Assembly: GCA_048938855.1 (NCBI GenBank)
Contig: JBHLLT010000026.1
Span: forward strand, 13,508-39,166
DNA length: 25,659 bases
Direction: 5' to 3'
Source: Promethearchaeota archaeon
Lineage (GTDB): Archaea > Asgardarchaeota > Lokiarchaeia > Sigyniarchaeales > SOKP01
Numbering within the stretch: the stretch's first letter is position 1; each line of letters starts with the position of its first letter. This document shows positions 1 through 19,683 of this stretch, one piece after another. The notes beneath the pieces were generated by a model. It saw only the letters and a list, made by a program, of their open reading frames with translations, made no database searches and was not told the DNA's origin. Both the position numbers and the translations under genes were made by a program.

Positions 1-722
1 ACTACATCTGGTAAGCTTTCAGTAATCTCGTCATCCCTATCAGCTAGTTTATCAGTTGCTCCTTTTTCAGAATGTTCTGTCGCCACTTCAATGTTTCCCA
101 TTAATGTAGCAAACATCCCAAGCATTCTAATTCCTGAGCGCTCTACGATTGGTTTACAACCACGACATGGAGTATTGTAATCTATACATCGTTCTTTACA
201 TTCCTTTGCAATAAAACCATTGCATAAATATCCAAGATCATTGAAACAAGTTTCTTCATCATCTAATTCAATTTGACGATGTACCTGTTCTAAATAATCG
301 CAAGTTTTTCGTCGACCGCAAACGATGCATAAATTCTTTAATTCTGGTAAATTTTCACTCTTAATTTCAGATTGTAGCTCTTCGATCTCACCTAAACAAC
401 CATTAATATTTATAACATCTTCAATTAAATCTTGACACGGTGTTACTTCATAACCTCGTTGATTTGATAAGGCAAAAACTCCTCCTGTAGTGGTACAATC
501 TCCATAAGCGATAACTTTTGTTGAATTTATCTTGATTTTATTCAAAATCTCTTTATCATTTGGTAATAAATAACCAGTGATTATAGAGACATCTGTCTTT
601 TGATCTTTCCAATTTTTAGGATCCGAAATAAATTCAACATTAAAACTTGAATCTCCTTTTAATAATATACTTTCATTAAAGCATTTATTGCATCCATTAA
701 ACTGAAATATTTTAACATCCAT
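1..722 (-). CDS. mvhG: MvhG-like Fe-S protein ([NiFe]-hydrogenase group 3c small-subunit family), 3' end truncated by window edge
   Basis: Not in the ORF track; translated by hand from ATG at 722 (11-bp overlap with the mvhD end): MDVKIFQFNGCNKCFNES...VIAYGDCTTTGGVFALSN...NGCLGE...NLCIVCGRR...TCFNDLGYLCNG...ECKERCIDYNTPCRGCKP...GIRMLG. Open to base 1. The Cys pattern fits a three-cluster hydrogenase small subunit, and it lies directly after mvhD. Confidence 0.8.
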   Translation of the reverse strand, partial: MDVKIFQFNGCNKCFNESILLKGDSSFNVEFISDPKNWKDQKTDVSIITGYLLPNDKEILNKIKINSTKVIAYGDCTTTGGVFALSNQRGYEVTPCQDLIEDVININGCLGEIEELQSEIKSENLPELKNLCIVCGRRKTCDYLEQVHRQIELDDEETCFNDLGYLCNGFIAKECKERCIDYNTPCRGCKPIVERSGIRMLGMFATLMGNIEVATEHSEKGATDKLADRDDEITESLPDV

Positions 723-1170
723 CCTTAAATGTCCCCTCCTCTCTTATTGCAGTAGCTAAACGCTCTACTAAATCTTCAAAATCTCCCACTGCTGTTTCTG
801 CTTCCGCAGCTCGTGAAGTATATTGATTTACAAATTGATCACTATACCCCAATTCTTTAAATAACTTTTTTAGAAGCTTAATTCTGTGCATTGAGAGAAT
901 ATTCCCATTAAAGAAATGACATGCTCCCAAGCAGCATCCTATGCAAGCAACTGCATCGGCTCCATTATTAAGTGCATCCATAATTTGAATTGGACCAACT
1001 TGACCGGTACATTGAACTCTAACGATGCGTATTGCTGGATTGTAAGACATTCTAGCCACACCAGCAGTATTAGCAGAACCTTGACCGCATTCATTACACA
1101 TGAAAACTACTATATTTTCCATTTTTTTGAGCACTTCTGGCTCGATAATTTTACATTCTGTCTCAGTCAT
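712..1170 (-). CDS. mvhD: MvhD/FlpD [2Fe-2S] hydrogenase delta subunit
   Basis: Motifs FMCNEC, AGVARMSY, IRIVRVQCTG, GADAV, GCCLGACHFFNGN. Start moved from 1209 to ATG 1170 (MTETEC), which follows a GGAGGTG SD and overlaps the hdrA stop (ATGACTGA). Confidence 0.9.
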   Translation of the reverse strand: MTETECKIIEPEVLKKMENIVVFMCNECGQGSANTAGVARMSYNPAIRIVRVQCTGQVGPIQIMDALNNGADAVACIGCCLGACHFFNGNILSMHRIKLLKKLFKELGYSDQFVNQYTSRAAEAETAVGDFEDLVERLATAIREEGTFKDGC

Positions 1171-3196
1171 CTGCGCATACACCTCCGCCTGATAAGGCAA
1201 TAATTTCATCTAATAGTTGATTATCCCTAAAGTTTAACAGTTGGATCGCTCCTGTTGGACATGCAGGCATACACATTCCACATGATTTGCACGCTACTTC
1301 ATTAATCATTGGTGTTCCATCGTCATTTATTTGAATAGCTGCTGGAGAACAAACAGTTTTACACAGCCCACATCTAACGCATAGATCCAAATCCACAGAT
1401 GGGATCAGCATTTCCTTTTCAATATATCCTTTCACTAGTGGAGCTGCAGCGATTGCTGCGGCACTACCCGCTTGAGCTACAGATTCTGAAATGTCTTTAG
1501 GACCTTGAATTGCACCCGCTAAGAAAATGCCTCCTTTGCTGCTCAGTGTTGGATTCATTTTAATATGAAATTCTTTAAGAAATCCTTCTTTTGAACGGAG
1601 GACTTGTAATTTTGAACCTAAAGGACCAATTCCCTCGGGTGGCACCATAGCTGCAGAGAGTACAACCAAATCGCCATTAAGCCTTAAAGGTGTTTGACTT
1701 AGAGTATCTTCAACGCTAACACTTAACTCTCCTGAGATAGGATCTTTAATGATCTCTGAAGGTCTTCCTCTAATGAATCGTACTCCAACTTCTTGAGCTG
1801 ATTTGTATAGTTCTTCGAAATTTAACCCTGGAGTTCTTACATCAATATAACATATGGTAACATTTGTATTAGGATACATTTCTTTTATAATTCTTGCATT
1901 TTTTACAGCAAACTTACAGCATACTCCAGTACAATATTTATTCCCCACCTGATCGTTTCTACTACCTACACATTGAATCATAACTACATTTTTTGGAATT
2001 TTCGCATCAGATGGTCTTAATACTTGACTGTTAGTAAGTGATCCAGGAGCTAACATTCGTTCCAGCTGTAGTTGGGTAATAACATTTTCATATCCTTCTT
2101 GTTTATAATGATAAGGTTCAATTTCAGAAGGATCATATTCATCATAACCCGCAGCAACTACTATTGAACCCACTTTAAATGTCTTCGTTTCTGGTTGCAT
2201 CGAAAAATCGATTGCTTGAACTGGACACACGTTTATACAGGTATTACATTCAATACATACTTTCTTATCTCTAACATAAGTAGCTGGTATTGCTTGTGGA
2301 TACGCTTTATATATTGCATTTCTCATCGAGATTCCGCTATCCCATTCACTGGGAACTTCCACTGGGCAATGTGCAGCACATTCGCCACATGAAGTACAAT
2401 TGTCTTTTACGTATCTTGGCTTGATTTCGATTTCAACTTCGAAATTTCCCATCGAACCTTCAACATTTTTAATTTGGGCATTAGTATATAATTCTATTAA
2501 GGGATGATTGGCAACTCCATTGGTTAATGGAGAGATTGAGCATTGTGGACATTCTAATGTTGGAAATGTTTTATTTAACTGTGTCATGTGACCTCCAATA
2601 GTCGAATTTCGTTCAACTAAATAAACTGGAATACCTAATTCCGCCATATCATTAGCAGATCTAAGCCCTGCTATACCTGCACCTATAACAAGTGCAGCTT
2701 TCGTGGTAGGTAGCTTCCTAGTTTCAACGTCTTCTAATTTTCTTGCTCTATTAACTCCTGCTTCTACAAGCTTCATTGCTTTATCTGTTGCTCTTTCTTT
2801 CTCTTTTTGATGAACCCAACTGCAATATTCTCGTACATTTACTTGCTGATGCCTATGTTTATTCAAGCCCATTTCTTCAATTGCTTTAGCGAATGTTCTC
2901 CCATGTTGATTCTTAGAACAAGATGCTACAACAGTTCTATTTACACCTAATTCTTTAATGGAATCCTTAACCATTTGTACTCCGGGTTTTGAACACATAA
3001 ACATATAATGTTCCGCTTTAACAACATTTGGTAATGTTGAAGCGTATTCAGCAACTTTAGCCACATCTACTGTTCCTGCTATATTATGTCCACAATGACA
3101 TACAAAAACTCCAATCTTTGGTTCATCACTCTCAGTATCTGCAACCTTTTCCCCTAAACTTTTGGTATTTTCTATTTTTTCTTCTTTTACAGTCAA
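1163..3196 (-). CDS. hdrA: Heterodisulfide reductase subunit A (FAD/Fe-S, full-length methanogen type)
   Basis: IGVFVCHCGHNIAG, REYCSWVH, FAD motif LVIGAGIAG, KTFPTLECPQC, inserted 2x[4Fe-4S] ferredoxin (CTSCGECAAHCP, CIECNTCINVCP), QCVGSR...YCTGVCC, GPKDI, C-terminal ferredoxin (CVRCGLC, CKSCGMCMPACP). TTG start preceded by GAGGAGG. Confidence 0.97.
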   Translation of the reverse strand: MTVKEEKIENTKSLGEKVADTESDEPKIGVFVCHCGHNIAGTVDVAKVAEYASTLPNVVKAEHYMFMCSKPGVQMVKDSIKELGVNRTVVASCSKNQHGRTFAKAIEEMGLNKHRHQQVNVREYCSWVHQKEKERATDKAMKLVEAGVNRARKLEDVETRKLPTTKAALVIGAGIAGLRSANDMAELGIPVYLVERNSTIGGHMTQLNKTFPTLECPQCSISPLTNGVANHPLIELYTNAQIKNVEGSMGNFEVEIEIKPRYVKDNCTSCGECAAHCPVEVPSEWDSGISMRNAIYKAYPQAIPATYVRDKKVCIECNTCINVCPVQAIDFSMQPETKTFKVGSIVVAAGYDEYDPSEIEPYHYKQEGYENVITQLQLERMLAPGSLTNSQVLRPSDAKIPKNVVMIQCVGSRNDQVGNKYCTGVCCKFAVKNARIIKEMYPNTNVTICYIDVRTPGLNFEELYKSAQEVGVRFIRGRPSEIIKDPISGELSVSVEDTLSQTPLRLNGDLVVLSAAMVPPEGIGPLGSKLQVLRSKEGFLKEFHIKMNPTLSSKGGIFLAGAIQGPKDISESVAQAGSAAAIAAAPLVKGYIEKEMLIPSVDLDLCVRCGLCKTVCSPAAIQINDDGTPMINEVACKSCGMCMPACPTGAIQLLNFRDNQLLDEIIALSGGGVCADD

Positions 3197-3197
3197 A

Positions 3198-4115
3198 TTA
3201 TACCGCCTCCTCTTCTTTTGTTACCTTAACTCCTCCAAAAATGTAATCCTTCCCCATTAATTGATATTGTAGACCAATGAATTCTTGATCCATTCCCATA
3301 CAATATGCTGTTAATTGAGAAAGATGAATTACTGGATAATCATAATTACAATTCTTATTTTTATTCAAATAGTCTTGTCCAGTCTCAAATTGCAGATGAC
3401 AAAATGGACAAATATCTAAAATGAAATCTGGTTTTACCTCATCAATATTTTTCATCTTTTCCCCAAAAATAGTCATACTAGCATTTCCATTATAGGCTTT
3501 GACACCTCCTCCCGCACCGCAACAAGTTAATTGTTCCTTGAATCTTACAGATTGAATCCCTAAAGCATCAACGAATTCTTCGATAATTGTTGGTCCTTCT
3601 GAGCTTTCAATTTCTCTAATTCTTGTTGGTTTGAGAAAATGACATCCATAATGTATTGCAGCTTTTGCGTTAACCTTTCGAACTATATGTTCTTCTATTC
3701 CCCATGGGCCAATTTCATATCCTAAAACCTCAGCAACATGTCGAACGTTGATAGTCCCCTTAAACTCATAATCCCCGATAAGTTTTAATCTATCATTTAC
3801 CATATTTCGATGTTCTTCATTTTCTTTTAAGTGTTTGTTGACTTCTTGGAGAGTACCAAAACATCCATTACAAACAGTTAAAATATCCGCATCCAACTGT
3901 TCAGCAATACACAAATTTCTTGCTGCAGTAACCATCCAATCAACTTTATTAAACGATCGGAAGACTCCTGGTGCAGGGCAACACGTTGCTCTTTCCATAT
4001 CTAAAATTTCATATCCTAATTTTTCCATTACAAATTTTGTTGATTTTTCAATCGCAGGATATCGATTTGGCATAATGCAACCTAAAAAGAACGCAAAAGT
4101 GTTTTCTTTGACCAT
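3198..4115 (-). CDS. hdrB: Heterodisulfide reductase subunit B (two CCG domains)
   Basis: AFFLGCIMPNRYP, CCPAPGVFRSF, VCNGCFGTL, HYGCHFLKP, CCGAGGGV, CPFCHLQF, PVIHLSQL: the non-cubane [4Fe-4S] ligand sets. Confidence 0.97.
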   Translation of the reverse strand: MVKENTFAFFLGCIMPNRYPAIEKSTKFVMEKLGYEILDMERATCCPAPGVFRSFNKVDWMVTAARNLCIAEQLDADILTVCNGCFGTLQEVNKHLKENEEHRNMVNDRLKLIGDYEFKGTINVRHVAEVLGYEIGPWGIEEHIVRKVNAKAAIHYGCHFLKPTRIREIESSEGPTIIEEFVDALGIQSVRFKEQLTCCGAGGGVKAYNGNASMTIFGEKMKNIDEVKPDFILDICPFCHLQFETGQDYLNKNKNCNYDYPVIHLSQLTAYCMGMDQEFIGLQYQLMGKDYIFGGVKVTKEEEAV

Positions 4116-4119
4116 TTTT

Positions 4120-4677
4120 TTATTTCTCCTCCTTTTCCTTCTTCTCCTCCTTGACAGGAGGTAAATCGAACATGAATTTTTCTATATTTTTTAAATCTTT
4201 ATCATCTCCTTCCTGCTTAAATTTAAATGCAGTAGGAGGTAATTCTTCTAAACCTAATTCAACTCGTCGTTTTCTTGTTTCGTCATTTATCGGTACTGCA
4301 TGTCCAAAATTCTTTAAATAACCTACTACCGCTCTATGATTAGGAGAAATATTCCCTAACTTAGTAGCATAATTACGTAATTCCATTATTACATCTGTAG
4401 GCCTCACATCACGCGGACATCGCTCATAACATTGATAACACGTAGTACAAAGCCAAATATCAGGATCCATTAATACTGATAAATCTCCTAAAACTACTTT
4501 TCTCACAATTGAACGAGTCTTTAAAGCAGTCCATCTTCCACTTTCACAGCTTGCGGTACATGTACCACATTGGATGCACTGCCAAATATTTGATTTTCTC
4601 TCAATATTTTTGAAAAAATCTTGATCAAAATCTTTATCTGTTTTATACTCACGGTGTTCTTCTTTTACATCAGACAT
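4120..4677 (-). CDS. hdrC: Heterodisulfide reductase subunit C (2x[4Fe-4S])
   Basis: CIQCGTCTASCESG and IWLCTTCYQCYERCPR ferredoxin motifs; C-terminal GHAVPIN...ELGLEELPPT typical of HdrC; adjacent to hdrB. Confidence 0.95.
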   Translation of the reverse strand: MSDVKEEHREYKTDKDFDQDFFKNIERKSNIWQCIQCGTCTASCESGRWTALKTRSIVRKVVLGDLSVLMDPDIWLCTTCYQCYERCPRDVRPTDVIMELRNYATKLGNISPNHRAVVGYLKNFGHAVPINDETRKRRVELGLEELPPTAFKFKQEGDDKDLKNIEKFMFDLPPVKEEKKEKEEK

Positions 4678-4698
4678 TTACCATCACTTTTTTAAATA

Positions 4699-4720
4699 TA
4701 TATAAAATAAAAAAAAAAAA
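4699..4720 (-). terminator. Oligo-T (T12) archaeal terminator-like tract after dsrE2, followed by a TATA-like TTTATATA
   Basis: A12 at 4709-4720 on + is T12 on the coding strand, 15 nt after the dsrE2 stop. TTTATATA at 4706-4699 starts 29 nt upstream of the hdrC ATG. Confidence 0.45.
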
Positions 4721-4735
4721 TTGTTAATTTTTAGC

Positions 4736-5161
4736 TTATAGAGAGACTATTCTGCCTCCATTACTCATTTCTAAAAATGAGGCTGCTCCAACTGGTGCTT
4801 CCGCAATATCTATTATATCTTCAACTTTAATCCCCATTAAATCCATAGTCATTTGACATGGATATAATTTTAAATTACCATTTTCAACGCCATCTTTAAT
4901 TAAAGCCCATGGATCTTCAATTCCAAACTTTTTCATCCTTTTTCTGAAAATTTTAGCTCCCATACCTTTCATAGGAGTTGGCATCCCAGCGACTTTAGGT
5001 TTAAAATTTTTTGTTATTAAATTCAAACCCCAAAAGGTAAAGAAAAAGTTCATTTTCATATCCATAGCATCACCTGTTGAACCAAGGATAGCCATCATAG
5101 CAAACTTCTCGAATGATTTATCCTTAACAATAAAATTTATTGTTTCACCATTTTCAGCCAC
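4736..5161 (-). CDS. DsrE2-family (DrsE_2) sulfurtransferase/peroxiredoxin-like protein
   Basis: FFFTFWGL and YPCQMTMDLMGI motifs, VGAASFL. Start placed at GTG 5161 behind AGGTGG; the ORF track uses GTG 5170. Confidence 0.88.
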   Translation of the reverse strand: MAENGETINFIVKDKSFEKFAMMAILGSTGDAMDMKMNFFFTFWGLNLITKNFKPKVAGMPTPMKGMGAKIFRKRMKKFGIEDPWALIKDGVENGNLKLYPCQMTMDLMGIKVEDIIDIAEAPVGAASFLEMSNGGRIVSL

Positions 5162-5287
5162 ATTTACCACCTTTTTATATTTTTTTTCGGAAATTTCCTT
5201 TTTTTTTTTTTGTTTAATTCTATTATTTTTCTGGTTTTAACCAGTATTTTTCAAAAAATTTTTTGAATTTGTTTTACTCATTTCTTA

Positions 5288-5629
5288 CTACATCCAAGAT
5301 ATTATTTTTGGTGTAGCATCTATCACATCGATTAGATCGTCATATTCTATAGATCTGATTTTATCATGAATGTATTCTGGAGATATACCGCGAGCTTTCA
5401 TATCTGATCTCATAGCAAATACAGTTATCCCTAACTCAAGAAGTTCTTCCATTTGGCTTGGAATCTTTCCCTTTTTCATTATGCCTATCACACCATCTTG
5501 AATTAGAACTAATCCAAGTTTTGTATTATTTTTGATTTGACTTTTTATAATAGGTAACAATATCTTTAACTGATTCCCTGTCAATCCACTAAATCCAAAC
5601 AAATATATAACATCGAGATTTTCTGTCAT
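5288..5629 (-). CDS. DsrH/TusB-family sulfur relay protein
   Basis: LVLIQDGV, DMKARGI, IEYDDLIDVI, terminal ISWM; third gene of a dsrEFH-like trio. Confidence 0.88.
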   Translation of the reverse strand: MTENLDVIYLFGFSGLTGNQLKILLPIIKSQIKNNTKLGLVLIQDGVIGIMKKGKIPSQMEELLELGITVFAMRSDMKARGISPEYIHDKIRSIEYDDLIDVIDATPKIISWM

Positions 5630-5645
5630 CTTTTCCTATCCTCCC

Positions 5646-6014
5646 TTAATATCTAAAACACGTGTCTGCTTTTGCAATTAAATCTGCTAATTCATCATAT
5701 CCAATAATGTTCAAGTTTTCAAATTCAATCAAATCATCTTTTGATATTCCAGCATCGCTTAACGCGGATTCAATAAGATACACTTCCAAATCAGATAATT
5801 CAGCGATTTCTAAGACCTCTGCTAAGGAATCCATCCCGACAGCCTCGGGATCGCAATTTTTATTAAATAAATACACTGCATCTCCAGTAAACACAATTTT
5901 ACAGTCTATGAATTCTCCTAACGCTGTAAATCCAGAACCAATTCTGATTGCTTCAATTGCATAATTTTTGCCAATAGGCGATTGATCACTTATTATGACC
6001 ACAGATTCTACCAT
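5646..6014 (-). CDS. DsrF/TusC-family sulfur relay protein
   Basis: SPIG..AIEAIRIG, VFTGDAVYLF, ELADLIAKAD. Start moved to ATG 6014 after a GGAGGT SD. Confidence 0.85.
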   Translation of the reverse strand: MVESVVIISDQSPIGKNYAIEAIRIGSGFTALGEFIDCKIVFTGDAVYLFNKNCDPEAVGMDSLAEVLEIAELSDLEVYLIESALSDAGISKDDLIEFENLNIIGYDELADLIAKADTCFRY

Positions 6015-6018
6015 TTTT

Positions 6019-6387
6019 TTAACCTCCTGCTCCAAATACAATTAATTTATCGGCATTAATTGCCCAGTTTGAAAAATCCCCCAATCCTTCTTCGGAGGCT
6101 CCTTCAATGAATTCTGTTTCTTTTAGACCAGTTATACTAACCCATGTACTACATCCAGCAATTGGAATTTTGTTCTCAGTAGCAAATTTTTCAATTTTAA
6201 TGGGGATATTTCTTAAGGTATTTCCACAACTAATGTCCTTTTTAATATTGTAAACTCCGGTTCCAAAGAAAAATATCCCTGTTATCTCATGTCCCTTTCT
6301 TAATGCAGCTTTTCCTATCTCAATCAAAGAATCTACTGCTTGATATTTATAAGGTTCTGTGCTAATAAAGAAAACATATTTGGACAT
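6019..6387 (-). CDS. DsrE/TusD-family sulfurtransferase
   Basis: EPY, AALRKGHEITGIFFFGTGVYN, active-site-position Cys in IAGCSTW, GLGDF, ADKLIVF. Confidence 0.9.
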   Translation of the reverse strand: MSKYVFFISTEPYKYQAVDSLIEIGKAALRKGHEITGIFFFGTGVYNIKKDISCGNTLRNIPIKIEKFATENKIPIAGCSTWVSITGLKETEFIEGASEEGLGDFSNWAINADKLIVFGAGG

Positions 6388-6414
6388 AATATCTCTTTAC
6401 TCCTTATGACGCAT

Positions 6415-6639
6415 TTAAGCCTTTTTAATAACGAAAATTAAATTTCCATTATCTTCTCTAAGTTCTACTAATTCATCTCCAATCTTATTGAGAAGAGCTG
6501 GAATATCCTTTTTAGCACCAACATCATCAACAATTACTTCAATAACTTGCCCAGAAGTTAAGTTTTTTAACTCCTTCTTCGTTTTCAGTACTGGCATTGG
6601 ACACTTTAAACCAGTATAATCAAATTTTTTATCAACCAT
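6415..6639 (-). CDS. tusA: TusA-family sulfur carrier protein
   Basis: 74 aa, DYTGLKCPMPVLKTKKEL (CPxP), GQVIEVIVDD, DIPA. Confidence 0.95.
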   Translation of the reverse strand: MVDKKFDYTGLKCPMPVLKTKKELKNLTSGQVIEVIVDDVGAKKDIPALLNKIGDELVELREDNGNLIFVIKKA

Positions 6640-6700
6640 TTTTTTCTCACTTTTATTTTTATACTTTTTTATAACTTTTTATTTACAATTCATAATTTTT

Positions 6701-6738
6701 TTTGTACTATATATTACAAACGTAAACTCATATTTAAA
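6701..6738 (-). promoter_or_regulatory. Putative tusA-cluster promoter (TTTAAATA) with a 20-bp near-palindromic operator over the expected start site
   Basis: TATA-like TTTAAATA at 6738-6731 on the minus strand; TTTGTACTATATATTACAAA (6701-6720) matches its reverse complement at 18/20 positions. Confidence 0.45.
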
Positions 6739-6815
6739 GTAACCATACATAGTATAAAAATATTCCCAAAAAAAAGCACAAATAATTATATATATTTATA
6801 AAGGGATATCACAAA

Positions 6816-6848
6816 CAAAAAGTTTATATTAATATTCTCATATTAATA
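6816..6848 (+). promoter_or_regulatory. Putative BRE/TATA promoter of the Lrp/AsnC gene with an overlapping inverted repeat
   Basis: CAAAAAG-TTTATAT (purine-rich BRE plus TATA), then TATTAATAT-TCTC-ATATTAATA (6827-6848). Confidence 0.35.
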
Positions 6849-6900
6849 AGTAGAAAAGTAGAAATTATTGATTTCATAATTATACCTTTAAAATAAAAAA

Positions 6901-7368
6901 ATGACAGAAATAATAGAGTTAGATGATTTAGATAAACAAATACTGAGTATACTCCAAAATAATGCGAAAGCTTCGCTTCGTGATATTGAGAAAGAGATTC
7001 AATTAACCCCGACTTCTATTAGAATGCGGATTAACCGTCTTAAAGAAAAGAAAGTAATAAAGCAATATGTTACACTTATTGATTGTCGATATTTAGGATA
7101 TCGAGAGATGGTAATGGCATCACTTCGAGTAAATTCATCGTATCCCTTAGAGGATCTTAAGAGAAAAATAGAGCTCATGGATAAGATAAAGTATGCGTAT
7201 ATAATTACTGGGGAATATCCATTGTTCATTATGGCAAAATGTCTTAATCATCAAGATTCTATGGGACTTATTGAAAATCTACGAAATCTTCCAGGAGTAG
7301 AGGAAGTCAAAACTCAAATTGTATTGGATAAAATTAAAGAAGATCCATCTGTAATTATTCCTGAGTAA
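6901..7368 (+). CDS. Lrp/AsnC family transcriptional regulator
   Basis: LDDLDKQILSILQNNAKASLRDI...RINRLKEKKVIKQY HTH; C-terminal RAM domain (YIITGEYP, LPGVEEVKTQIVL). Confidence 0.95.
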   Translation: MTEIIELDDLDKQILSILQNNAKASLRDIEKEIQLTPTSIRMRINRLKEKKVIKQYVTLIDCRYLGYREMVMASLRVNSSYPLEDLKRKIELMDKIKYAYIITGEYPLFIMAKCLNHQDSMGLIENLRNLPGVEEVKTQIVLDKIKEDPSVIIPE

Positions 7369-13683: not shown

Positions 13684-14694
13684 TCAAGAATTATTAATTC
13701 TAGCCCCTGTATCACTTTTATTTCTCTTGATTTTAGAACTTTTAAGATTTACAAGAGTTATACCTAATACTACTAGTGATAATGAAAGAGGATAGATAAA
13801 AACATCAAATTGTTCTCCTAAAAATATAGCAGAAAAAACGACACCAAATAATGGTACTGATGTTTGAAAAATAGCAGCTCTACTTGCACTTAAACGTTTG
13901 ACACCTTCTAAATAAAATGTATAAGCACCTATTGTCGACAAGAACGCTAAATATATGATTCCAATCCATATTCGAAGAGGAATAGTTAAATATTTGATCG
14001 GGTTAAGATATTCTGGTCCGATGATGAAAGCTAGAGGAACAGTTGTTAAAAAACCAAAAAAAGATACCCATGTAATTATCCACAATGAGCTAGGTTGATT
14101 TAACTTATGGTTATCATTTACTTTGTTCATAAAATGACGTGATATAACCGTATATGAAGCATAAGCAACTGCAGCAATTAAAATCAAAACATCTCCAAGT
14201 AATCGATTTGAGACTTCTTCATTTGGCGAAAATCCAAAGACAATAATAACTGCAATAAAAGCCATTAGAGTTCCAACAATCTTTTTCCAATTAAAAAATT
14301 CTGTTTTTAAGAAGAGATTAGAGAGAATTACAACCCATATAGCATTTGTAGCGACCATAATACTAGCATCACTTGCAGCGGTAAATATTTCCCCTATAAG
14401 ATATCCCATCTGGTAAACAGTAACTGATAATAATCCCATTAACAATAAAATTTTCCAATTTTTCTTTGCAAACTGCCAATTTAAAGTTCCTTCTTTAACT
14501 TTTAGAACTATAAAAAAGCAAACGACTGCTAAGAAATATCTTATTGCGGCTATCATAAATGTAGGAATCGTTGGGCCATATAAAGGATCTACTATCCATT
14601 TTCCAATTGGCCATGTACCTCCCCATATTACCATTGTTAAGATTAACAGTAAATACGCAACGATTTCGTATTTTCTTTTACCACTAGACGACAT
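13684..14694 (-). CDS. DMT/EamA family transporter
   Basis: IWGGTWPIGK, AAIRYFLA, LFLKTEF..KKIVG, GDVLILIAAVAYASYTVISR, SAIFLGE; two EamA repeats. Start probably ATG 14694 (11-bp overlap with the upstream gene). Confidence 0.92.
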   Translation of the reverse strand: MSSSGKRKYEIVAYLLLILTMVIWGGTWPIGKWIVDPLYGPTIPTFMIAAIRYFLAVVCFFIVLKVKEGTLNWQFAKKNWKILLLMGLLSVTVYQMGYLIGEIFTAASDASIMVATNAIWVVILSNLFLKTEFFNWKKIVGTLMAFIAVIIVFGFSPNEEVSNRLLGDVLILIAAVAYASYTVISRHFMNKVNDNHKLNQPSSLWIITWVSFFGFLTTVPLAFIIGPEYLNPIKYLTIPLRIWIGIIYLAFLSTIGAYTFYLEGVKRLSASRAAIFQTSVPLFGVVFSAIFLGEQFDVFIYPLSLSLVVLGITLVNLKSSKIKRNKSDTGARINNS

Positions 14695-15358
14695 GTTCTT
14701 TATTCTCCGGGATGCTCTCATTATACCATTTACTAATTAAATTACGTTTCTTAATATATCTGAGAAGATAAAGCGATATTATTAACATAATAGTATCCTC
14801 GACAAACCAAATGAGTTGATATACTGTTAAATTACGGTCAATTCTTATTGGCCCTATAAAAATAGGACCGAAATCAACAAATGAATACAATAAGAAATCA
14901 GGATTTTGCATTATTAATGGAAAAAAAAGGGGATTCACACCATGCGCAGGAAGATCAATTATAATATGTGTTAAACCCCCAATTAAGGCAGAGTAAGTAG
15001 CAACTAAAAAGAATTTTGAGTTAAATTTCTTACTGCTTAAATTATCCCATCCATCTAAACCAAAAAATCTTAAAGGTGAATATATTCTGCTCTTTTTTTT
15101 CGCAATTCTGGCAACCAATGGGCTAATATAACTACAAAATAAAATAGTCAAAATGAGAGTTAACGGAATAGTATAAATTAGTTGCCCTAGTAAACTATGA
15201 GTAATATTCCTAAACGAAAATGGTAAAAAGTAGTCAACTATAATATTTAAATCAGGAACCAATGAACCAATGCATAATGCTGTCCCATCAAAATTTCTAG
15301 GATATTTAATTTTTAGTAGTAATCCTGGTGCTTGGTGAGAAACTAATCCATTTGGCAT
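14684..15358 (-). CDS. DUF4184-like membrane protein (putative metal-dependent hydrolase), paralog 2
   Basis: SHQAP, ALCIGSLVPD, THSLLG, IGGLTHIIIDLPAH motifs. Confidence 0.8.
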   Translation of the reverse strand: MPNGLVSHQAPGLLLKIKYPRNFDGTALCIGSLVPDLNIIVDYFLPFSFRNITHSLLGQLIYTIPLTLILTILFCSYISPLVARIAKKKSRIYSPLRFFGLDGWDNLSSKKFNSKFFLVATYSALIGGLTHIIIDLPAHGVNPLFFPLIMQNPDFLLYSFVDFGPIFIGPIRIDRNLTVYQLIWFVEDTIMLIISLYLLRYIKKRNLISKWYNESIPENKEHVV

Positions 15359-15406
15359 CTGACTATTTTTCCTTTTTTTTCCATTATATTTTTCCTAAAT
15401 AATATA

Positions 15407-16063
15407 TTAACCTGGTGGTATTTCATACCATTTCTTAATTAATTCATGCTTTTTTATATATCTGAGAAGATAAAGAGATAAAACAAAAGTAACTACTGTT
15501 TCAATAAACCATAAAAGATTATAAATAGTAAGATTAGCTTCAAATGTGAAAGGCCCAACTGCTATTGTACCATAGTCTAAAAGGGAATATTGGAAAATTT
15601 CGAAATTCAATCCTACAAACCATGGGAACAAAATTGTAAAATATTTGTGTGCAGGGAAATCTAATAAAATATGTGTTATTCCACCTATAAAAGCAGAATA
15701 AGAAATAATGAACCAAGATTTTCTTGAGTATTTCTTCTTTTTTAAAAGATTCCATTGATCAACACCAAAATATCTTAGGGGTTCATAAAATCTACTTTTT
15801 TTGGAAGCTATTCGTGCACATAAAGGTCCAATATACCTAGAGAATATAACAGTAGCTATAATAGTGATTGGAATCGTCCATAAAAACTGACCTAATAAAC
15901 TATGCGTAAACACGTAAAAATTAGTATTTAAGAACAAATCAAATATAAAGTTAAAATCAGGGATAAGAGCCCCTAGACATAGAGCTGTTCCATCAAATAT
16001 TTTAGGATATTTAATTTTTATTAGCAACCCAGGAGCTTGATGGGAAAATACACTACTTGGCAT
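15407..16063 (-). CDS. DUF4184-like membrane protein (putative metal-dependent hydrolase), paralog 1
   Basis: SHQAP, ALCLGALIPD, THSLLG, IGGITHILLDFPAH; tandem paralog of 14684-15358. Confidence 0.8.
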   Translation of the reverse strand: MPSSVFSHQAPGLLIKIKYPKIFDGTALCLGALIPDFNFIFDLFLNTNFYVFTHSLLGQFLWTIPITIIATVIFSRYIGPLCARIASKKSRFYEPLRYFGVDQWNLLKKKKYSRKSWFIISYSAFIGGITHILLDFPAHKYFTILFPWFVGLNFEIFQYSLLDYGTIAVGPFTFEANLTIYNLLWFIETVVTFVLSLYLLRYIKKHELIKKWYEIPPG

Positions 16064-18669: not shown

Positions 18670-19683
18670 TTGAACACGAAGAGACATTTTTCATTATTCC
18701 TTAAAAAAAAAACTTACCTTGTCATAGTTATAGCAGCCTCATTAATAGGGGCCTCATTAATAATTAGCAACATTATCATTCTTAATAATAAATCTAACAT
18801 TAGGGGATATCCAGATTTTATTACAAAAACAGAAGATTATTTTATAACAAGAATTGGTAATGTCCCAAATATTGACCCAAATAATTATAGACTTAACGTA
18901 TGGGGGCAAATAAATAATTCGAAGGAATTCACTCTTACTGAGCTGCGAGGTTTGAACTTAATTCAACGAGTATTAACAACAGAATGTATTGGGAATTATA
19001 TTAATGGTCCTCTTGTATCTACTGCAATATGGAAGGGGTTTTCAATATATGATTTAATAGAATCTCTTGGTTTGAAAGAAAATGCGACAGGAGTAAAATT
19101 TACAGCTGCAGATGGGTATTATACCTCTCAAACACTTGAACAATTAAAAAATAATAGTACAATTGGAGCTCTCTACATGAATGGAAAAATTATACCTCCT
19201 ATTCAAGGTTTTCCACTTCGAGTTGTGAATCCTGGTGCATTTGGAGCTAAACAACCTGCGTGGGTAATTGATATTGAAGTAATTGATAAACCAATGAGTG
19301 ACTACTGGGATGATAGAGGTTGGGATACTTCACCTCCTATGGACGTCGATTCAAAAATATTTTTTCCGAGTAATGATGTAGATGTAGATGTTGGAGTTCC
19401 ACTTGAAATTGGAGGGGCAGCTTATGGAGGAAGAAGAATATCAAAAATTGAGTACACGATTGATGGAGGCAAAACCTGGGACCAAGCTGTTATAATAAAG
19501 GACATGGATTTAGATCATGTTTGGGTTTTCTGGAAAATAACAATTATGTTTGGGAGTTCAGGGACTTTTACACTTAATACGAAAGCTACGGATATTAATG
19601 GTAATGCACAGCCTAAATCTGATTCGGTTTATTATAATGGAATAAACAGCTGGCCATCATTAATTATAAATGTAATGAGTTAA
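18670..19683 (+). CDS. Sulfite-oxidase-family molybdopterin oxidoreductase with N-terminal membrane anchor
   Basis: TTECIGN (Mo-ligating Cys), STAIWKG, AADGY, GFPLRVVNPG, YWDDRGW; C-terminal Ig-like dimer domain (GAAYGG..ISKIEYTIDGGKTW, KATD..GNAQP); hydrophobic residues about 16-38; TTG start. Confidence 0.92.
   Translation: MNTKRHFSLFLKKKTYLVIVIAASLIGASLIISNIIILNNKSNIRGYPDFITKTEDYFITRIGNVPNIDPNNYRLNVWGQINNSKEFTLTELRGLNLIQRVLTTECIGNYINGPLVSTAIWKGFSIYDLIESLGLKENATGVKFTAADGYYTSQTLEQLKNNSTIGALYMNGKIIPPIQGFPLRVVNPGAFGAKQPAWVIDIEVIDKPMSDYWDDRGWDTSPPMDVDSKIFFPSNDVDVDVGVPLEIGGAAYGGRRISKIEYTIDGGKTWDQAVIIKDMDLDHVWVFWKITIMFGSSGTFTLNTKATDINGNAQPKSDSVYYNGINSWPSLIINVMS

Follow-up and report, generated by a model that had tools for sequence, protein, structure and literature searches.

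Sulfur-carrier genes joined to a methanogen-type HdrABC-MvhD module in Lokiarchaeia and a candidate TusA-linked partner for HdrB

We analyzed a stretch of 25,659 nucleotides, here called the window, from the genome of a Promethearchaeota archaeon (assembly GCA_048938855.1, contig JBHLLT010000026.1; G000:C24:13508-39166, where G000 is the host genome and C24 the contig in our numbering). The left end of the window contains a block of genes in which small sulfur carriers of the TusA and DsrE families are encoded beside a methanogen-type HdrABC-MvhD complex. The original prediction, made from the window alone, was that a protein-bound persulfide or disulfide, delivered by a relay of these carriers, could take the place of CoM-S-S-CoB as the HdrB substrate. 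Pfam searches found every one of its ten co-oriented genes on the minus strand and confirmed the divergent Lrp/AsnC gene. The features of the block are listed here in window coordinates, with the last three lines giving positions on contig C24 or including them.

6901..7368, plus strand: Lrp/AsnC regulator, divergent from the block (Pfam HTH_AsnC and AsnC_trans_reg)
6415..6639, minus strand: tusA1, sulfur carrier of 74 amino acids (aa) with a CPMP motif (Pfam TusA, E=3.5e-24)
6019..6387, minus strand: dsrE/tusD-like gene, 122 aa, active-site Cys79 in GCSTW (Pfam DsrE)
5646..6041, minus strand: dsrF/tusC-like gene (Pfam DsrE family), with its likely start at the ATG at 6014
5288..5629, minus strand: dsrH/tusB-like gene, 113 aa, without cysteine (Pfam DsrH, E=1.4e-11)
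4736..5170, minus strand: dsrE2, soluble carrier of the DsrE2B type, 144 aa, Cys105 in YPCQMT (Pfam DrsE_2, PF13686)
4678..4735, minus strand: intergenic T12 tract, TATA-like element and GGTGATG ribosome-binding site, read from the sequence
4120..4677, minus strand: hdrC, 185 aa (Pfam 4Fe-4S dicluster; TIGR03290)
3198..4115, minus strand: hdrB, catalytic subunit, 305 aa, two CCG motifs (two Pfam CCG matches; TIGR03288)
1163..3196, minus strand: hdrA, 677 aa, full-length bifurcating type (match to 5ODC_A)
712..1209, minus strand: mvhD, [2Fe-2S] connector, 165 aa (Pfam FlpD, E=7e-32; NCBIfam VhuD / HdrA2 C-terminus)
1..722, minus strand: mvhG-like gene, N-terminal 240 codons (Pfam Oxidored_q6), with the remainder outside the window at G000:C24:12817-13407
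C24:10346-12814, minus strand: frhB::gltD, 822 aa, outside the window and downstream of the mvhG-like gene
C24:10078-10311, minus strand: tusA2, a second TusA, outside the window after frhB::gltD

The full block comprises 12 co-oriented genes, tusA1-dsrE-dsrF-dsrH-dsrE2 followed by hdrC-hdrB-hdrA-mvhD-mvhG-like-frhB::gltD-tusA2, and six small sulfur-carrier proteins share it with HdrABC. It extends beyond the left edge of the window over a scaffold gap of 100 N, which is flanked by an exact 77-nt duplicate (window 1-77; G000:C24:13331-13507) and cuts the mvhG-like gene. The gap and duplicate look like an uncollapsed k-mer overlap from an assembly join. Deleting 177 nt at the gap restored a 411-aa frame, and intact orthologues of this gene are single open reading frames of 411-418 aa.

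Judged by alignment and phylogeny, the Hdr of the block is of the methanogen type and is not sHdr, the form found in the sHdr-LbpA system. HdrA residues 24-665 align with residues 2-646 of 5ODC_A (E=2e-195); the sHdrA structure 6TJR covers the flavin core alone (residues 343-585). HdrA has the full-length domain set of a methanogen-type bifurcating complex, with an N-terminal cluster domain, a FAD domain and both inserted and C-terminal ferredoxin domains, and MvhD is present with it. HdrB matched the solved methanogen HdrB proteins 5ODC_B/9SFI_C at E=1e-92 and contains two CX(n)CCX(n)CXXC motifs for two noncubane [4Fe-4S] clusters. Its ten cysteines all align to 5ODC_B, these cluster ligands are invariant in 17 orthologues, and the equivalents of the proton-path residues H154 and E87 are retained. 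HdrB and HdrC both score above the NCBIfam equivalog cut-offs for CoB-CoM heterodisulfide reductase (371 bits against a cut-off of 345 for TIGR03288, and 175 against 160 for TIGR03290). A maximum-likelihood tree of HdrB placed the block sequences in a clade of the form (Methermicoccus,(Thor,Loki)) with support of 99/97, outside of which fell the other HdrB-like proteins of the host; identity to the Methermicoccus HdrB is 54-57%. The earlier description of a 677-aa HdrA with one HdrB and one HdrC, distinct from sHdr, was therefore correct. The host genome encodes at least 12 HdrA paralogues and about 19 CCG proteins. No HdrA paralogue is more than 42% identical to that of the window, and the block Hdr is a single distinct paralogue within this set.

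The sulfur-carrying cysteines noted originally in TusA1 (CPMP), DsrE (GCSTW) and DsrE2 (PCQMT) are present, and Cys13, Cys79 and Cys105 are each found in 18 of 18 Lokiarchaeial orthologues. Cys47 of DsrF is present in 17 of 18 orthologues, which start at MVES, and DsrH has no conserved Cys among 17. The matches to Pfam DsrE, DsrE and DsrH, with the active Cys of DsrE/TusD, correspond to the three subunits of DsrEFH/TusBCD. The closest solved relative of DsrE2 is 2QS7 (E=8e-16), which is SSO1126, the homologue of the DsrE2B prototype. DsrE2 has the features of a soluble DsrE2B, namely the PF13686 fold, a single conserved Cys, and linkage to tusA and hdr genes. None of the carriers of the block attains the NCBIfam equivalog scores of E. 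coli Tus or A. vinosum DsrE2: TusA1 is below the TusA cut-off, DsrE scores 50.5 bits against 89 for TIGR03012, and DsrE2 scores 52 bits against 210 for the A. vinosum-type equivalog. Among the proteins of the block TusA2 is conserved best, with 73% identity to its MK-D1 counterpart compared to 70% for HdrA and 65% for HdrB. A profile search with TusA2 gave 173 relative clusters, and the names in the top 120 are all Asgard or generic.

We found that the link between the carriers and Hdr is conserved. A DsrE2 profile search identified 55 Asgard loci, and in 43 of these dsrE2 is followed by hdrC, including the loci of the isolated strain P. syntrophicum MK-D1, Candidatus L. ossiferum, Candidatus Harpocratesius and Sigynarchaeum. 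The remaining 12 loci comprise four at contig ends, seven minimal tusA-dsrE2(-tusA2) loci and one that has decayed. This last locus, in a closed metagenome-assembled genome (MAG; CP070831.1, bin108; loci L013/L050), has tusA-dsrEFH and a truncated dsrE2 of 121 aa with the entire hdr part gone. Lokiarchaeia, Thorarchaeota and a Methermicoccus-type contig from a metagenome scan share an invariant core, hdrCBA-mvhD-mvhG-like-frhB-tusA2. Genes of the DsrE family lie upstream, downstream or beside this core in an order that varies by lineage. In Thorarchaeota the order is hdrCBA-mvhD-mvhG-like-frhB-tusA2-dsrEFH, with tusA1 and another DsrE-like gene nearby. On the Methermicoccus-type contig two DsrE-like genes precede the core, which adjoins fae-hps. 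The HdrB of this contig is 92% identical to that of the Methermicoccus shengliensis cluster, and its core is evidently the 'FrhBG-HdrA2B2C2' of Kurth et al. 2021 (PMC8630106). In the same scan, carrier genes occurred at none of 63 canonical methanogen hdrCB loci. The synteny that had been proposed as a check thus holds, and its recurrence in Lokiarchaeial, Thorarchaeota and Methermicoccus-type loci indicates that the arrangement is not due to chance. That the link between carriers and Hdr survives rearrangement is well supported by these gene orders.

The block is also inherited and lost as a unit, which marks it, on the counts that follow, as an accessory trait. When 400 genomes of the phylum were sampled, HdrB orthologues turned up in 62 of 134 genomes from the host family, 7 of 14 from the MK-D1 family and nine from a third family (f31), where one HdrB carries the name Thorarchaeota. 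Among the 53 other species of the host genus, 29 have HdrB, 34 have TusA2 and 28 have both, counts in which related genomes are not independent samples. Most of the mismatches fall at contig breaks. In three of the six species with TusA2 only, the gene lies about 6 kb after the start of a contig, as a break of the assembly between hdrB and hdrA would produce. Some genomes in the genus that are 99% complete lack both HdrB and TusA2. By these comparisons the carrier most tightly tied to Hdr is TusA2, not DsrE2. Thus, the idea of a persulfide relay tied to Hdr holds for the link itself, and the tightest carrier is one encoded beyond the window.

Co-inheritance and synteny bear on whether the carriers and Hdr work together at all. 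The relay cassette and the hdr operon could be neighbors through shared Lrp regulation or through inheritance, with the carriers acting in unrelated thiolation. The interval between dsrE2 and hdrC is consistent with this. Within each half of the block the genes are separated by 1-27 nt or overlap, and this interval is probably a terminator followed by a promoter. Six further genomes of the genus show the same pattern of T12 tract, TATA-like element and ribosome-binding site. In MK-D1 a T9 tract stands at this position, and in its family lrp is located between dsrE2 and hdrC. The conserved T tract and TATA-like element make two tandem transcription units likely. The original view of tightly spaced, co-oriented genes needs to be amended in this respect. 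The minimal tusA-dsrE2(-tusA2) loci without Hdr, and the low equivalog scores of the relay proteins, which leave their function open, also fit unrelated roles. However, the hdr unit of three lineages itself contains tusA2, genes of the DsrE family stay adjacent in Loki, Thor and Methermicoccus despite differing order, and the presence and absence of HdrB and TusA2 coincide within the genus. We consider it very unlikely that the two halves are uncoupled.

The electron-input arm of the block differs from that of a hydrogenase. The first 240 residues of the MvhG-like protein keep the Fe-S cysteines and weakly match MvhG (5ODC_E). The last ~190 residues match no Pfam family and have no conserved Cys. 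An AlphaFold2 model from an 8-row alignment had a mean predicted local distance difference test score of 46, too poor for a fold search, and we used a hidden Markov model of the C-terminus instead. Searched against the 9,927 open reading frame fragments of the host, this model best matched the N-terminus of a group-3-like [NiFe] large subunit (E=0.005), with the next match at E=0.1. The match covers the RxCGxC nickel site, where Gly, Ser and Lys stand in place of Cys. It is weak but specific and suggests that the C-terminus is a fused, nickel-free remnant of a large subunit. The host has two [NiFe] large subunits, both on other contigs, and no large subunit with Ni-binding cysteines was found near the block. 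As read from these ligands, the hydrogenase arm of the block is dead and H2 is not the donor here. Of the MvhD(G) module described originally, MvhD is present, and the MvhG-like protein is not part of a hydrogenase arm.

Electrons probably enter through a FrhB flavoprotein with an inserted GltD module of the NADH type. The 822-aa protein has a complete GltD/NfnB-like module (two [4Fe-4S] clusters, FAD and a nicotinamide site) inserted within the FrhB domain, and this insert resembles NfnA/NfnB (E=3e-90 to 2e-70). Its second Rossmann strand terminates in KVHLVD, that is, in Asp, which by the general Rossmann-fold rule points to NADH over NADPH. The insert is missing in one genome of the genus, Harpocratesius, Thorarchaeota and Methermicoccus, which makes a plain FrhB the ancestral donor subunit. 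The host encodes CofE, so F420 is probably made. The closest characterized parallel to this donor arm is ElpABC-HdrABC of Methanothermobacter marburgensis, in which a cofactor-less FdhA relic, a FrhB-type subunit and an MvhD homologue replace Mvh (PMC12350162). Elp-Hdr is fed, with no H2 involved, by a FrhB/FdhB-type flavoprotein through a catalytic subunit that has lost its cofactor, plus an MvhD homologue, and the Hdr of the block is predicted to be fed likewise. This match of flavoprotein, cofactor-less scaffold and MvhD is at the gene level alone, and the scaffolds differ in origin since the relic of the block is derived from a hydrogenase and not from FdhA. The GltD insert is extra, whereas Elp has no sulfur carriers and reduces CoM-S-S-CoB. 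The MK-D1 genes annotated as 'MvhG' and 'sulfide dehydrogenase' correspond to this hydrogenase-less donor arm, which corrects the common annotation.

We next consider what HdrB might reduce. The host genome is 97% complete and has no match to McrA, ComA, the DsrC/TusE family or NIR_SIR-type sulfite reductases; YeeE/TsuA was also not found in it. This gene content supports a non-methanogenic Asgard archaeon, as had been supposed, and extends the reported lack of dsrC/tusE from the window to the genome. DsrEFH/TusBCD normally has DsrC/TusE as its acceptor, with rDsrAB or MnmA downstream, and neither a DsrC-family nor a NIR_SIR match was found in the host genome; the MnmA Pfam model is uninformative because it matches every control genome, and here it gave weak generic PP-loop matches of <=26 bits. 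The block contains no lbpA, and GcvH-like genes are on other contigs. Since Mcr, ComA, DsrC and sulfite reductase all gave no match, no established source of a known Hdr-type substrate was found in the host.

A small-molecule substrate stays a live rival because HdrB is near-canonical and the module is also present in a methanogen with CoM and CoB. The complex would then reduce CoM-S-S-CoB, a related heterodisulfide or a thiol persulfide, and TusA and the DsrE proteins would be accessory, for example in making or repairing the thiol or in supplying it with sulfur. The equivalog scores of HdrB and HdrC and the similarity of HdrB to the methanogen proteins count in favor of this idea. The eight Asgard-conserved HdrB positions, and no more, that differ from Methermicoccus are mostly conservative changes. 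Moreover, the same core in a methanogen has been assigned to CoM-S-S-CoB (PMC8630106). The host also encodes ComD and ComE (sulfopyruvate decarboxylase) above NCBIfam equivalog cut-offs (G000:C34:66447-67536; L110:8447-9536), with two Zn alcohol dehydrogenases and a PhpK-like radical SAM enzyme as neighbors. This neighborhood fits sulfonate or phosphonate metabolism, in which ComDE may act rather than in the synthesis of CoM. The genus has ComE in 50 of its 54 species, with or without the block, and we rejected ComDE as specific evidence for the use of CoM by the block Hdr. The lack of McrA and ComA, the 63 canonical hdrCB loci with neither TusA nor DsrE, and the report that Methermicoccus has HdrA1B1C1 and HdrDE for its heterodisulfide (PMC8630106) also argue against a small-molecule substrate, which we regard as rather unlikely.

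The sequence of HdrB gives a lead in the other direction. Two positions adjoining the two CCG motifs separate all 24 TusA2-linked sequences from the 63 canonical and two solved HdrB proteins, a comparison in which the canonical set is of low diversity (median identity 78%). At position 53, G is replaced with R/K, and at position 208 a basic R/K is replaced with a non-basic Y/A/G/F. These changes may be a sign of an altered substrate. Overall, HdrB mostly does not appear to be re-specified.

Based on these results, we tentatively favor a model to which we give somewhat less than an even chance. In this model, the product of the block is a soluble HdrABC-MvhD complex that bifurcates or confurcates electrons by way of flavin and whose input arm is a decayed hydrogenase. 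The MvhG-like protein would serve as an Fe-S wire with a nickel-free large-subunit stub, fed by a FrhB-type flavoprotein (F420) that in the host genus has a GltD/NfnB-like insert, seemingly specific for NADH. The partner at the noncubane clusters of HdrB would be sulfane sulfur, or a di- or trisulfide, carried by or released from TusA2, and TusA1, DsrEFH and DsrE2B would load or unload TusA2. Run reductively, the complex would use NADH or F420H2 to turn carrier-bound sulfur into H2S with ferredoxin reduced alongside, and sulfur could serve for assimilation or as an energy-saving electron sink. The reverse reaction, from sulfide to carrier persulfide, would also be possible. We infer the single complex, its donor, its substrate and its direction from what was observed directly, that is, gene content, homologies, conservation, co-inheritance and the loss of the nickel ligands. 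Carrier-borne sulfane sulfur is a plausible partner because the known substrates have no visible source in the host, because TusA is a terminal hub for sHdr, and because a CCG enzyme, DsrK with DsrC, has been shown to reduce a protein trisulfide to sulfide (PMC10861901). The broader claim that, across Lokiarchaeia, Thorarchaeia and Methermicoccus, bifurcating HdrABC has a TusA-borne persulfide or polysulfide as its physiological high-potential partner is more doubtful.

Several points weigh against a carrier-borne substrate. A persulfide couple lies near -260 mV and with NADH as donor would be a weak driver of ferredoxin reduction. The functional link between a carrier and HdrB is drawn from genomic context, and the T tract and TATA-like element could leave the relay cassette uncoupled from hdr. 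The TusA2-linked clade keeps the residue at 75 of the 154 columns conserved in canonical HdrB, all cluster ligands included, and, with HdrB above the CoB-CoM equivalog cut-off, the pocket is not visibly rebuilt. The second Cys of TusA2 (CxxxC) is absent in MK-D1, Sigynarchaeum and most Thor sequences, which also ruled out a DsrC-like trisulfide on TusA2 as a general mechanism. DsrE2B of M. cuprina was unreactive in vitro toward every sulfur compound. Finally, the Methermicoccus complex was putatively assigned as an F420H2:CoM-S-S-CoB oxidoreductase (Kurth et al. 2021, PMC8630106). A complex prediction of HdrB, HdrC and TusA2, made with alignments and without controls, gave a score of 0.00, to which we attach no weight either way. 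We also considered selenium handling by TusA/YedF-like carriers, given weak YedF matches and the known selenoproteins of Lokiarchaeota, and found no specific support for it.

The same proteins could instead run oxidatively for biosynthesis. Reduced ferredoxin and sulfide would reduce NAD+ or F420 by confurcation to give a TusA2 persulfide, and, in a sulfidic habitat, DsrEFH, DsrE2 and TusA1 would hand on the sulfur for the synthesis of Fe-S, tRNA or cofactors. In favor of this, an Hdr complex can in principle work in both directions, the families of the relay proteins are ones that deliver sulfur for biosynthesis, and the energetics of an NADH-type module would fit better in the oxidative direction, although this is partly our own reasoning. 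In addition, the thirteen MK-D1 genes DSAG12_01139-01151 are transcribed evenly and near the level of typical genes in cells grown without added S0. Their values are 182-348 reads per kilobase per million, but the data set as a whole spans little and covers a single condition, making this weak evidence for co-expression. By contrast, the block is missing in about one-third of the species of the genus, including genomes that are 99% complete, and so is not a housekeeping route. A TusE/DsrC acceptor was not found and the MnmA matches are generic. In the MK-D1 gene table a tusA-dsrE pair adjoins a cysteine desulfurase and could itself serve biosynthesis. The host genome likewise has another tusA and a second dsrEFH set elsewhere. 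This second set, 38-53% identical to that of the window, is spread over two or three short contigs (G000:C17:1-1004, C67:4518-5521, C50:15-170) and may be duplicated assembly or part of the 7% contamination. We consider an oxidative biosynthetic role to be unlikely.

Comparison with characterized systems places the block between several of them. MvhADG-HdrABC and VhuADG-HdrABC (5ODC, 9SFI, 8RVU), from hydrogenotrophic methanogens, have full-length homologues of HdrA, HdrB, HdrC and MvhD and share the CCG motifs and proton-path residues. Unlike these, the block lacks a [NiFe] large subunit, has MvhG fused to a Cys-free remnant, differs at HdrB positions 53 and 208, adds FrhB::GltD and the TusA and DsrE genes, and occurs in a host without Mcr. 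Methermicoccus shengliensis 'FrhBG-HdrA2B2C2', the sister in the HdrB tree, has the same core order including tusA2 and two DsrE-like genes upstream, but belongs to a methanogen with CoM and CoB and has neither the GltD insert nor the DsrEFH/DsrE2/TusA1 set. TusA has 0 occurrences in the paper on this cluster (Kurth et al. 2021, PMC8630106). Since the same core, with DsrE-like genes and TusA2, is present on a methanogen contig, the carriers are not simply a substitute for CoM-S-S-CoB in cells without it, and that part of the original prediction does not hold. The occurrence of the module in Methermicoccus suggests that the trait predates the Asgard lineages.

The sulfur-oxidizing sHdr-LbpA system (PMC11094781, PMC4175335) also has TusA and DsrE2B-type genes beside hdr, with TusA as the proposed last carrier, and TusA co-purifies with sHdr in Aquifex (PMC11094781). 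The block differs in its long HdrA of the ferredoxin-domain type, its single HdrB and HdrC, the lack of lbpA and its host, an anaerobic fermenter. In DsrMK(JOP), the CCG/noncubane subunit DsrK reduces protein-bound zero-valent sulfur, the DsrC trisulfide, to sulfide. In the FlxABCD-HdrABC of sulfate reducers, a NADH module reportedly feeds HdrABC-MvhD (Ramos et al. 2015). Compared to both, the block has no DsrC, DsrAB or membrane module, and its TusA carrier lacks the two-Cys arm of DsrC in many orthologues.

Full-text literature searches found no paper analyzing the block. The MK-D1 paper treats Hdr solely as part of a confurcating hydrogenase and names no thiol partner. However, the system cannot be called undescribed, since a figure legend in a preprint on Nerearchaeum marumarumayae, a Promethearchaeaceae strain, proposes that a cytosolic Hdr reduces TusA- and DsrE-bound persulfides (bioRxiv 10.1101/2025.07.22.663070). 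That preprint assumes that H2 is used by a group 3c hydrogenase and that TsuA imports thiosulfate, and the part of it available contains no comparative or biochemical analysis of the block. Our host genome differs in showing no YeeE/TsuA and in the dead hydrogenase arm of its block. Overall, the original inference is partly supported.

To our knowledge, the substrate of Hdr in Asgard archaea without methanogenesis is unsettled. The block offers concrete candidates for the partner of HdrB, namely TusA2 fed by DsrEFH and DsrE2. If TusA2-linked sulfur is that partner, this would be a third kind of Hdr besides those for reducing CoM-S-S-CoB and for sHdr oxidation, and the archaea most closely related to eukaryotes would use sulfur as an energy-conserving electron sink that NADH or F420H2 drives. 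Hdr complexes are central to hydrogen- and sulfur-syntrophy models of eukaryote origin. Since the block is present in three named strains, including the isolated MK-D1, the question is open to direct biochemistry and to culture with sulfur species.

We also observed related arrangements elsewhere. A Promethearchaeota MAG (L081, JBHLMN010000025.1) has a second, divergent pairing, tusA-dsrE2-tusA then mvhG-hdrA-mvhD-hdrC-hdrB, with proteins 25-45% identical to those of the window. In six genomes of the MK-D1 family (G025, G028, G032, G035, G038, G039), DsrE2-like segments lie within open frames of 829-856 aa, suggesting a large DsrE2-domain fusion. In Thorarchaeota (L104:3199-3972, L105:3909-4682), genes for a 131-aa DUF5400 membrane protein and a 120-aa DsrE-like protein are located between tusA1 and the dsrEFH/tusA2 end. 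On four other contigs of the host (G000:C20, C77, C79, C86), HdrA paralogues occur as three consecutive pieces in permuted order (~170-580, ~25-260, ~335-670). Each adjoins MvhD and FrhB-like genes, and they look like split or rearranged forms of HdrA.

The remainder of the window encodes unrelated metabolism, including a glucoamylase, a sugar transporter, beta-oxidation enzymes and a sulfite-oxidase-family molybdoenzyme. The molybdoenzyme (18670-19683, plus strand; Oxidored_molyb and Mo-co dimerisation domains) is encoded in an anaerobic Asgard genome in which no sulfite reductase was found. Two tandem paralogues at 14684-16063 on the minus strand belong to the DUF4184/YdjM-like membrane metal-hydrolase family.

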